Below are positions 31,576 to 32,031 of a DNA stretch of 64,000 bases, piece by piece (positions within the stretch are counted from its first letter, which is position 1; every line of letters starts with the position of its first letter). This stretch comes from Aggregatimonas sp. (GTDB lineage: Bacteria > Bacteroidota > Bacteroidia > Flavobacteriales > Flavobacteriaceae): assembly GCA_965238025.1 (NCBI GenBank), contig OZ250162.1, positions 969,288 through 1,033,287 on the forward strand, read 5' to 3'. The notes below the pieces were generated by a model, which worked only from the letters and a program-made list of their open reading frames with translations, did not search any database and was not told where the DNA came from. A program made the translations under genes and the position numbers.

Positions 31576-31658
31576 GACGCGCAGGTTCGACTCCTGCAAG
31601 AGGCCACCTTTTTTAGGCCCTTTAGCTCAGTTGGTAGAGCACTACACTCATAATGTAG
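31576..31658 (+). ncRNA. permuted or broken tRNA-Ile2/Met(CAU)-like element
   Basis: T arm GCAGG-TTCGACT-CCTGC and AAGAGGCC-ACC come before GGCCCTT, D arm and CTACA-CTCATAA-TGTAG; no T arm downstream. Confidence 0.55.
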
Positions 31659-32031
31659 CCTAAAGCTAATCATCTTTTAAAACTGATTACCAAGCCCTGT
31701 TAGGCTTAAAATGACAAAAGCCGTAGTTATACCTCGGTTGGTTTTTCTTCGGAAGAATCAACAGTCTTAAAACTACTTTGAAATACTGAATTTTTGACGT
31801 GAAAGGCAATTTCTTTTTGAATATCCTTCTTTCGGAAAAACCAATGAGAAGTATTGGTAACACTGATGAAAGCATACCGAAAAACAAATAGTAACAAACT
31901 TCGAAAACCAATATTTCCGTAACAGAGAGATGAAGTATAACTCCGGTTTTTTAAAAAGAAGAAAATTAAAATAATGATAATAGTTTAACCCGTTCGTCCG
32001 TCACTAGACTGGCGGACACAAATTTTAAGTA

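Follow-up and report, generated by a model that had tools for sequence, protein, structure and literature searches.

A conserved tRNA-shaped module with swapped halves, probably a tRNA mimic, in a Band-7-linked RNA of Aggregatimonas sp.

Positions 31576-31658 of a 64,000-nucleotide stretch of DNA from Aggregatimonas sp. (NCBI GenBank assembly GCA_965238025.1, contig OZ250162.1, positions 969,288 to 1,033,287 of the forward strand; hereafter the window, in which all positions are counted) form a conserved tRNA-shaped module in which the two halves of a tRNA stand in swapped order. This module (module 2) follows another, module 1, in tandem, and both are permuted tRNA-like domains midway in one conserved structured RNA. 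Module 2 is most probably not the gene of a working tRNA, and we consider it probable that this permuted tRNA-shaped domain of a larger, Band-7-linked RNA mimics a tRNA instead of decoding.

RNA-repair islands centered on RtcB are widespread, but little is known of the RNAs on which they act and of their cofactors. The locus described here and its roughly 40 homologues provide a core structure backed by covariation, with two permuted tRNA shapes of which the second bears an anticodon-type loop. They add a constant link to a Band-7 gene, independence from Ro60, and a triplet that varies between lineages on an otherwise fixed scaffold.

Layout and fold of the second module

Read from 5' to 3', module 2 consists of a T arm, the acceptor 3' strand, ACC with a U-rich linker, the acceptor 5' strand, a D arm and a CAU anticodon arm (Table 1). 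These are the parts that the first-pass annotation of this DNA had listed, and all of them were found, including the GACGC (31576-31580) that stands 5' of the T arm. The minimum-free-energy fold of 31574-31662 is exactly the permuted cloverleaf, and A31601 is bulged in the acceptor 3' strand. The T arm, the D arm and an anticodon-type hairpin of 5 bp with a 7-nt loop complete the L shape of a tRNA. The nucleotides of the elbow and core are retained, namely U8 (T in 34/34 sequences), the GG of the D loop, the TTCGANT of the T loop and Y48, which corresponds to C31580 (a pyrimidine, C or T, precedes the T stem in 34/34 sequences). Module 2 is joined to module 1 and the 3' domain at the position of the variable loop, where the chain runs in and out.

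Between the flanks of module 2 no more than 3 bp (AGG/CCU) form, a helix that relatives do not keep, and there is no bulge-helix-bulge motif. The Rfam tRNA model matches 31616-31668 with 28.5 bits (threshold 29) and six relatives with 40-45 bits. Because the scores of these relatives exceed the threshold, the element may be annotated as a tRNA or pseudo-tRNA.

Table 1. Features of the RNA locus and its surroundings in the window
Feature	Position	Strand	Sequence or structure	Basis or remark
RlaP	19725-20780	+		Pfam
RtcB	21596-22996	+		Pfam
DUF4209	22996-24768	+		Pfam
RtcB (second)	25424-26815	+		Pfam
PrfH-like	26912-27604	+		Pfam
TPR	27595-28143	+		Pfam
Array of 16 tRNAs	28813-30105	+		ARAGORN
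GOLLD RNA	30780-31256	+		Rfam 127.7 bits, E 9e-35; below gathering score 150
Conserved 5' domain	31375-31497	+	ATATCAAGC...GGTCTTGTTGGG...CAACTTGACTTGAAGGTTT and hairpin GATTGTT...AACAATC	Near-invariant blocks, about 30 loci
Module 1, YrlA-type permuted tRNA-like domain	31503-31572	+		Rfam YrlA match and covariation
Linker between modules	31573-31580	+	AAGGACGC	Enters module 2 at variable-loop position
Module 2 T arm	31581-31597	+	GCAGG-TTCGACT-CCTGC	T loop TTCGANT in 34/34
Module 2 acceptor 3' strand	31598-31605	+	AAGAGGCC	Pairs with 31616-31622
Module 2 closing loop	31606-31615	+	A-CC (31606-31608), then TTTTTTA (31609-31615)	
Module 2 acceptor 5' strand and U8-A9	31616-31624	+	GGCCCTT (31616-31622), TA (31623-31624)	Helix 6
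Module 2 D arm	31625-31640	+	GCTC-AGTTGGTA-GAGC	Helix 7; D-loop GG in all sequences
Module 2 anticodon-type arm	31642-31658	+	CTACA-CTCATAA-TGTAG; triplet CAT at 31649-31651	Helix 8
Conserved 3' domain	31659-31955	+	Hairpins 31667-31689 and 31692-31707, then AAAATGACAAAAGCCGT..., ACAGTCTTAAAACTACTTTGAAATA	Family conservation
Band-7/SPFH gene	32032-33132	+		Pfam Band_7, E 6.6e-28

Covariation and extent of the larger RNA

The covariation analysis was performed on 34 true homologues of the family, with slid partners as the control. Across all helices, 96.9% of cells were paired, compared with 40-47% in the slid controls, and 36 of the 41 pairs showed compensatory changes. Helices 1-4, which make up module 1, were 95-100% paired with compensatory changes in 19 of 20 pairs. 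In module 2, the T stem (helix 5) was paired in every sequence (100%; 3/5 pairs covary), the D stem (helix 7) was 94.1% paired, and the anticodon-type stem (helix 8) was 98.8% paired with compensatory changes in 5/5 pairs. The two acceptor halves had been proposed to pair with each other, and this pairing (helix 6) is borne out by compensatory changes in 7/7 pairs, with 93.1% paired. Covariation thus backs the permuted topology that had been read from the window, a 3' half followed by a 5' half with an intact anticodon-type arm, and we agree that there is no pairing between the T arm and the 5' half before it.

The true acceptor partner lies upstream, not downstream. At a fixed offset, the acceptor strand paired with its own upstream strand at 6.1 of 7 positions, with non-own strands at 3.5 of 7 and with the downstream 7-mer at 3.2 of 7. 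The first-pass annotation had offered, as an alternative, a Y-RNA 3' arm followed by a truncated tRNA. The Y-RNA part of that suggestion stands, through the match to the Rfam YrlA model described below; the truncation does not. No normal full-length tRNA starting at GGCCCTT was found in the relatives. Their extra hairpin, which follows the anticodon arm, has an anticodon-type CU-NNN-AA loop, not a T loop, and the 7 nt behind it pair with the 5' strand at chance. Because there is no acceptor strand downstream, 31576-31658 is not a truncated tRNA.

To tell homologues from tandem tRNAs, we used a covariance model built on modules 1 and 2. The window and three same-genus homologues scored 170-190 bits, and the remaining true homologues approximately 74-175 bits. 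Ordinary, non-identical tandem tRNAs reached at most 55 bits when the genus was searched and 61.6-65.6 bits when the family was. Tandem identical tRNA copies can reach 90 bits on this model and were taken out by inspection; six loci were false positives of this kind (L219, L224, L225, L262, L263 and L278). We also rejected matches at tRNA-array or tandem-tRNA junctions (L266, L268, L279, the second match in L248 at 3480-3659, and L231 at 3654-3825) and left out L259 as aberrant. Scans of genome contigs and viral contigs for the pattern "T arm, short gap, D arm" returned ordinary tandem tRNA genes only. The whole element was absent from the phage collection searched. The matches obtained there were limited to the 5' half and anticodon arm, a stretch that is 89-95% identical to the 5' halves of phage tRNA-Met genes.

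The larger conserved RNA measures approximately 0.45-0.58 kb, from about 31375 to 31815-31955. We infer that it is a single transcript, and its ends and any processing are likewise predictions. For the 5' domain, stems were predicted, and the genus alignment shows compensatory changes in them. Module 1 contains a stem CTGT/ACAG around a T arm (31512-31528), a closed, 7-bp acceptor (31529-31535 with 31541-31547) and a D arm (31550-31567), and it has no anticodon loop. Within the 3' domain a stem-loop lies near 31730-31760, between AAAATGACAAAAGCCGT... and ACAGTCTTAAAACTACTTTGAAATA. Conservation of this domain extends to about 31815 across the family and to about 31955 in the closest relatives.

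Genomic neighborhood and relation to known RNAs

An orthologue of the Band-7 gene lies 340-660 nt downstream of the RNA, on the same strand, in 35/35 true loci. A phylum-wide sample gave the same neighbor in 9/9 true matches, of which five came from families of the class other than this one. Directly before the Band-7 start codon of the window stands a conserved hairpin (31996-32017). The element lies in an RNA-repair island with RtcB, PrfH-like and RlaP genes; this island was said to encode two RtcB ligases, and Pfam identified both (Table 1). Of 30 element-bearing genomes, 18 have an RtcB gene no farther than about 12 kb from the element, and five have no RtcB at all. Because these five carriers have no RtcB and about half of the genomes have none close by, a role tied strictly to RtcB is doubtful.

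The RNA of the window is not in Rfam 15. The Rfam YrlA model (RF02553) matches 31501-31575 (34.3 bits, E 4e-5) and 31580-31640 (26.1 bits, E 0.009), both below its gathering score of 69 bits, and it matches many relatives as well. These matches cover model positions 20-89 and 30-81 only, respectively, and the Ro60-binding terminal stem (positions 1-19 and 90-114) is unmatched. A search for TROVE (Ro60/Rsr) gave no match in this genome, and the gene is absent from 28 of 29 other carriers; relative G140 has a TROVE gene about 2.6 kb from the element.

The element shares with YrlA the permuted order of T arm, loop-closed acceptor stem and D arm, as well as the linkage to RtcB operons. YrlA itself is an RNA of about 110 nt that lacks an anticodon loop and is bound by Ro60 (Chen et al. 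2014, PMC4201824); its structure, PDB 6CU1, is cited by Wang et al. 2018 (bioRxiv 10.1101/312249). In contrast, the RNA of the window has no Ro60 gene, carries an anticodon-type loop, has two tandem modules within a larger RNA and is partnered by a Band-7 gene. It would be a Ro60-independent counterpart of the YrlA Y RNAs. In Mycobacterium smegmatis, RNase P cuts YrlA in vivo and in vitro, and the RNA gains CCA (Chen et al. 2014, PMC4201824). Module 2 has the same determinants, including the 7-bp acceptor stem, and adds an encoded ACC. However, processing was shown for the M. smegmatis RNA, which is bound by Ro60, whereas processing of the window RNA is predicted.

A Band-7-associated tRNA-like RNA, b7a-tRNA, was predicted by Burroughs and Aravind (Nucleic Acids Res 2016), according to Wang et al. 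2018 (bioRxiv 10.1101/312249), by whose account it had never been validated as of that year. As described there, b7a-tRNA adjoins a Band-7/SPFH gene in RtcB repair neighborhoods, resembles a tRNA and is found now and then beside Ro60. The element and its relatives share the neighborhood, with G140 as the instance beside Ro60. On the Rfam tRNA model the window stays just below the threshold and six relatives score above it, as given above. By the same second-hand description, b7a-tRNA was published as a near-authentic tRNA, whereas here the acceptor partner is upstream and the module is therefore permuted; here, too, the module is one of two, lies inside a larger RNA and has a variable anticodon. 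From the gene context and that description we infer that the window RNA is the b7a-tRNA of Burroughs and Aravind. The locus and its homologues turn a vague 2016 prediction into concrete questions on Band-7/RtcB recognition.

Two other classes of RNA have a permuted gene order. The two-piece tmRNA (RF04321) shares it with module 2, and in that RNA the tRNA-like domain is built from two strands once the linker is excised. Permuted tRNA genes of the Cyanidioschyzon type use a bulge-helix-bulge, the splicing endonuclease and a circular intermediate to produce essential decoding tRNAs. Such circularly permuted genes were reportedly described in Cyanidioschyzon merolae and relatives by Soma and colleagues in 2007. 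Module 2 resembles them in that the 3' half comes before the 5' half and a linker connects the two acceptor strands, but it has neither the bulge-helix-bulge nor a fixed decoding identity.

Competing explanations and possible role

Module 2 had been annotated as a permuted tRNA-Ile2/Met(CAU) gene that matures through a circle and RtcB; the ligase would join the RNA across the variable-loop break, and opening of the acceptor loop would release a decoding tRNA. Every part of a tRNA is present in permuted order, including a 7-bp acceptor, the ACC and the U-rich linker, two RtcB genes are encoded in the island, and the 5' half closely resembles that of phage tRNA-Met genes. However, we consider this reading very unlikely. 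The triplet varies on one and the same scaffold (UUU in 14, CAU in 9 and GUU in 3 of 34 sequences, plus others), and loop positions 32, 33, 37 and 38 are conserved around it. In most relatives the closing loop is 0-5 nt long and has no CCA, RtcB is missing from five carriers, and three ordinary CAU tRNAs are encoded elsewhere in this genome. The short flank helix is not conserved and offers no bulge-helix-bulge, and the module is fixed within a larger conserved RNA. We also rejected the module as a source of a tRNA missing from the adjoining array because its anticodon does not make up for what the array lacks: tRNA-Lys(UUU) is present in 4 of 7 arrays that adjoin UUU-type modules, the CAU-type locus G006 has tRNA-Met in its array, and arrays without Met are common irrespective of module type.

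Another reading is a charged, two-piece tRNA-like molecule, cut by RNase P before G31616 and completed with CCA in the manner of M. smegmatis YrlA or two-piece tmRNA, that would act on the ribosome, for example in rescue with PrfH. The 7-bp stem, discriminator A, CC and U-rich leader of the window favor it, as do the neighboring PrfH and RtcB genes. Among relatives, AC, ACC or ACCA followed by a U-rich spacer occurs in 8 of 9 of the CAU class, in L260 (also CAU) and in a few others; ACC or ACCA persists in several genera of that class, and four relatives keep a complete ACCA (L254, L265, L260 and L236). Such a molecule is nonetheless unlikely: relatives with ACC or ACCA are a minority and most loops are too short, the anticodon identity varies, and the acceptor stem of the window has a bulged A. 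There is also no tmRNA-like tag reading frame, no ARAGORN tmRNA call, and a score of 13.4 bits on the Rfam permuted-tmRNA model against a threshold of 47. The constant position 340-660 nt before the Band-7 gene on the same strand and the hairpin before its start codon could instead point to a cis-acting leader, in which tRNA-shaped modules sense or bind a factor and control downstream transcription or translation. We regard this as quite unlikely, given that about 0.5 kb with two complete L-shaped modules far exceeds the known size of leaders, that the closest relative, YrlA, is a trans-acting RNA in a ribonucleoprotein, and that a scan did not turn up a clear terminator or antiterminator as an alternative structure. 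An ordinary Ro60-bound Y RNA, orthologous to YrlA, would have the same permuted topology and an Rfam YrlA match, and G140 does have TROVE nearby. It is highly improbable with both scores below the gathering score, the Ro-binding stem positions unmatched and an anticodon loop that YrlA does not have; the canonical Ro60/Y RNA system is rejected because there is no TROVE gene in this genome or in nearly all other carriers. Because the model gives as much as 90 bits to identical tRNA genes in tandem (L219, L224, L225, L262 and L263), an origin of the element from tandem tRNAs is plausible, and its ACC resembles a former tRNA 3' end. That it is a functionless remnant of decayed tandem tRNA genes has next to no probability, however: across 34 genomes of the family each helix is upheld by compensatory changes, further families of the class carry the element as well, and its position relative to the Band-7 gene is constant.

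We favor a tRNA mimic within the larger Band-7-linked RNA. In such a mimic, the tRNA body and the exposed anticodon loop would be presented to proteins that recognize tRNAs. Candidate partners are RtcB, RlaP or the Band-7 protein of the island, or anticodon-loop ribotoxins that these proteins would counter. The RNA would presumably function as a decoy or scaffold, or it may be a damage sensor for the repair system. In the CAU clade, which has the 7-bp stem, ACC and U-rich linker, cleavage by RNase P and completion of CCA is plausible, though less likely than not; it would yield a nicked, two-piece domain. The ACC or ACCA in genera of the CAU class and the 89-95% identity of the 5' half to tRNA-Met genes would also be compatible with processing, and perhaps charging, of the module.

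A further possibility, to which we give a low probability, is that the anticodon-type loop is the working part of module 2, a swappable bait for local anticodon-loop nucleases, held by the Band-7 protein, resealed by RtcB and, in the CAU clade, opened by RNase P and ended with CCA. The bait would imitate Lys-UUU in most lineages, CAU here, and GUU or Leu-type in others, and its cleavage while held by Band-7 may signal or absorb an attack.

As for the other features of the locus, an array of tRNAs precedes the element in most relatives, and in L203 and L207 GOLLD RNA lies upstream of it.

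The permuted fold of module 2 and the predicted larger RNA

The first-pass annotation had described 31576-31660 of the + strand as a permuted tRNA(CAU), and all of the parts that it claimed are present in the listed order (see table). The acceptor forms by pairing of AAG(A)GGCC with GGCCCTT around a single bulged A, and the permuted cloverleaf is both the minimum-free-energy and the centroid structure when 31574-31662 is folded alone. ARAGORN made no tRNA call on module 2, and the Rfam tRNA model scored 28.5 bits (threshold 29) against 31616-31668, where it forced a poor downstream acceptor. 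The Rfam YrlA (Y RNA-like) model scored 26.1 bits against 31580-31640 and 34.3 bits against 31501-31575, immediately upstream of the module 2 match. Module 1, judged by its sequence, is a textbook case of a YrlA-type domain.

Features of the element and its neighbourhood in the window
Feature	Position	Strand	Details
Array of 16 tRNAs	28813-30105	+	
GOLLD RNA	30780-31256	+	Rfam 127.7 bits, E 9e-35, under gathering score 150
Module 1	31503-31572	+	stem CTGT/ACAG, T arm, closed 7-bp acceptor, D arm; no anticodon loop
GACGC	31576-31580	+	
Module 2 T arm	31581-31597	+	canonical, GCAGG-TTCGACT-CCTGC
Module 2 acceptor 3' strand	31598-31605	+	AAGAGGCC
A-CC	31606-31608	+	
TTTTTTA	31609-31615	+	
Module 2 acceptor 5' strand	31616-31622	+	GGCCCTT
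TA	31623-31624	+	
Module 2 D arm	31625-31640	+	GCTC-AGTTGGTA-GAGC
Anticodon-type arm	31642-31658	+	CTACA-CTCATAA-TGTAG, one A before it
Band-7/SPFH gene	32032-33132	+	

The predicted larger RNA, whose boundaries were set by conservation only, has a 5' domain that is conserved across the family from ~31375 and a 3' domain with conserved hairpins that extends family-wide to at least ~31815 and in close relatives to ~31955. A scan for promoters and terminators gave nothing informative on these boundaries. Despite small reading frames that overlap the region, conservation follows the pattern of paired stems. Module number varies, as some relatives have a third of like build directly after module 2 (locus L258, 7171-7273, genome G308; locus L253, downstream of 4268 in oriented coordinates, genome G140); in G308 its closing loop starts with ACC and its anticodon-type loop carries GUU. 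The GOLLD variable linker in the window also holds, at 30854-30905, another permuted tRNA-like piece of reduced form, the third within this 1.5 kb (T arm TTGGG-TTCGATT-CCCGA, short closed stem AGAG...CTCT, D arm GCTC-ATTTGG-GAGC).

Conservation and covariation among homologues

The element is genuine and conserved, with a well-defined structure. The same locus is present in three other species of the genus; in all, 4 of this genus's 16 genomes have it and the others do not. R1, a covariance model of modules 1 and 2 used for homologue searches, gave 170-190 bits for the window and its three same-genus homologues and at most 55 bits for ordinary tandem tRNAs in the genus search. Of 401 genomes sampled from the family, ~33 have the element (~74-175 bits with R1), and it also occurs in other families of the class. 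Tandem identical tRNA genes, which reached up to 90 bits on R1, were removed by inspection; they score highly because the 3' strand of the first copy pairs with the 5' strand of the second. These genes are a trap for searches as well as a hint at the origin of such modules. Six loci (L219, L224, L225, L262, L263 and L278; Val-UAC or Lys-UUU) were of this kind, with 75-90 bits.

Pairs were counted on the cleaned alignment of 34 elements. Paired cells made up 96.9%, compared with 40-47% when partners were slid by 1-3 columns, and both sides had changed at 36/41 pairs. The mutual pairing of the acceptor halves, claimed in the first-pass annotation, was borne out by the fold and by compensatory changes at 7/7 pairs of the closed helix (93% paired); the anticodon-type stem had them at 5/5 pairs (98.8% paired). 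Because the alignment was fitted to the model, we ran a separate pairing test that took only the conserved T stem and the TA-plus-D stem as anchors. The 7 nt directly 3' of the T stem formed on average 6.1/7 pairs with the 7 nt before U8, against 3.5/7 for strands from other loci. All 34 elements have the T loop TTCGANT, U8 and a pyrimidine at the residue-48 position, and the GG of the D loop is kept. With this pairing, the compensatory changes and the kept elbow and core nucleotides, the predicted permuted L-shaped fold is well supported.

Ordinary and permuted tRNA genes as alternatives

The topology proposed in the first-pass annotation is right, the maturation proposed there is not supported, and module 2 is most probably not a gene for a decoding tRNA. 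Among the 33 elements with a 7-nt loop, positions 32, 33, 37 and 38 are conserved as C, U, A and A around a variable triplet (UUU in 14, CAU in 9, GUU and UGG in 3 each, others in the remainder), and the same stem CTACA/TGTAG bears CAU, UUU or GUU depending on the genome. The acceptor closing loop is 0-5 nt long and lacks CCA in most relatives, RtcB is absent genome-wide in five carriers, and nothing similar to a bulge-helix-bulge motif was found in the flanks of module 2, where pairing is limited to an unconserved 3-bp helix. Nor does the triplet fill gaps in the adjacent tRNA arrays, as tRNA-Lys(UUU) is already present in 4 of the 7 arrays adjoining UUU-type modules and tRNA-Met in the array at one CAU-type locus. 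Three ordinary CAU tRNAs are encoded elsewhere in the window's genome. The alternative offered in the first-pass annotation, a Y-RNA arm followed by a tRNA truncated downstream, was right in its Y-RNA kinship but not in truncation. In most relatives an extra hairpin (consensus ATGGA-CTCAAAA-TCCAT) directly follows the anticodon arm; it was lost by a ~23-nt deletion in the window and in G177, the nearest relative outside the genus. Taking this hairpin as a T arm, the Rfam tRNA model gives 40-45 bits in six relatives (L209, L210, L211, L213, L215 and L220). However, its loop is CU-NNN-AA, an anticodon-type loop and not a T loop, the 7 nt after it form 3.2/7 pairs with the acceptor 5' strand, which is the chance level, and it directly follows the D arm in two relatives that belong to a different family of the class. 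These observations argue against a truncated ordinary tRNA, and the relatives do not have the normal full-length tRNA that truncation would imply.

The 40-45-bit scores are probably the reason such elements have been described as tRNA-like and, being over the threshold, may lead annotation pipelines to label relatives' elements tRNA or pseudo-tRNA. The extra hairpin is also missing at L254 and L247, as in G177, and is thus dispensable. Compared with the loci L004 (G006), L002 (G005) and L003 (G008), the ~23-nt gap in the window lies at 31658-31663; the hairpin missing there reads ATGGA-CTGAAAA-TCCAT.

Genomic context, kinship and putative role

The + strand order is RlaP, RtcB, a DUF4209 protein, a second RtcB, a PrfH-like protein (a release-factor homologue), a TPR protein, the tRNA array, GOLLD, the element and Band-7/SPFH. 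A full-length Band-7/SPFH orthologue lies 340-660 nt downstream on the same strand at 35/35 true loci, and the arrangement is repeated in all nine true hits from a sample of the whole phylum, of which five belong to other families of the class. RtcB is within ~12 kb of the element in 18 of 30 carriers. No TROVE/Ro60 gene was found in the window's genome, nor Ro60 in 28 of 29 carriers searched; in the sole carrier with a TROVE gene, G140, that gene and the element share a strand and lie ~2.6 kb apart (contig C21, TROVE 846-1583, element 4213-4391).

Wang et al. (2018, bioRxiv 10.1101/312249), relaying Burroughs and Aravind (2016), state that RtcB in some bacteria adjoins a Band-7 protein together with a predicted "band 7-associated tRNA"; on occasion this RNA has Rsr as its neighbour instead, and as of that text it lacked experimental validation. 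The context of the element matches this description, and the G140 layout agrees with the remark on Rsr. The element represents a variant form of the YrlA-type tRNA mimics and, going by this second-hand description, most probably belongs to the predicted Band-7-associated tRNA-like RNAs. YrlA was sought only in TROVE-encoding genomes (Chen et al. 2014, PMC4201824), so relatives without Ro60, such as the window's element, are missing from the family.

The RNA would be a structural tRNA mimic that works with the Band-7 protein and repair enzymes, much as YrlA does with Ro60. Its closed acceptor end, together with a canonical anticodon loop left exposed, suggests that it is recognised by its tRNA-like body and loop rather than used for decoding. 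The varying triplet in fixed surroundings suggests that either these three bases are free of constraint or selection favours mimicry of different tRNAs. The most frequent triplet type among the elements, Lys-UUU, is a common anticodon-nuclease target, which makes a putative decoy or sensor role attractive.

An unusual trait of the window's clade is a closing loop in which AC, ACC or ACCA precedes a U-rich spacer (8/9 CAU-class elements, L260 and a few others). RNase P cleaves the M. smegmatis YrlA, the sole YrlA with a 7-bp stem, both in vivo and in vitro, and this RNA acquires CCA (Chen et al., PMC4201824). By analogy, the same could happen in the window's clade, although we think it less likely than not; such processing would nick module 2 without yielding a normal tRNA. 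Phage tRNA-Met genes are 89-95% identical to the 5' half and anticodon arm, and tandem identical tRNA genes imitate the module layout, so a plausible origin of the module is that the RNA captured the central portion of a tandem tRNA duplication.

The tRNA arrays upstream of the element (28813-30105 in the window; L229-L265) are found again in different genera and are much alike in composition (Tyr, Asp, Glu, Gln, His, Phe, Cys, Pro, Leu, Arg, Lys and Ser), often without Met, Ile, Val, Ala, Gly and Thr. Just before the ribosome-binding region and start codon of the Band-7 gene lies a hairpin, GTCCG...CGGAC (31996-32017), that several genera share (L170, L200, L202, L205 and L220) and that may be a translational control element.
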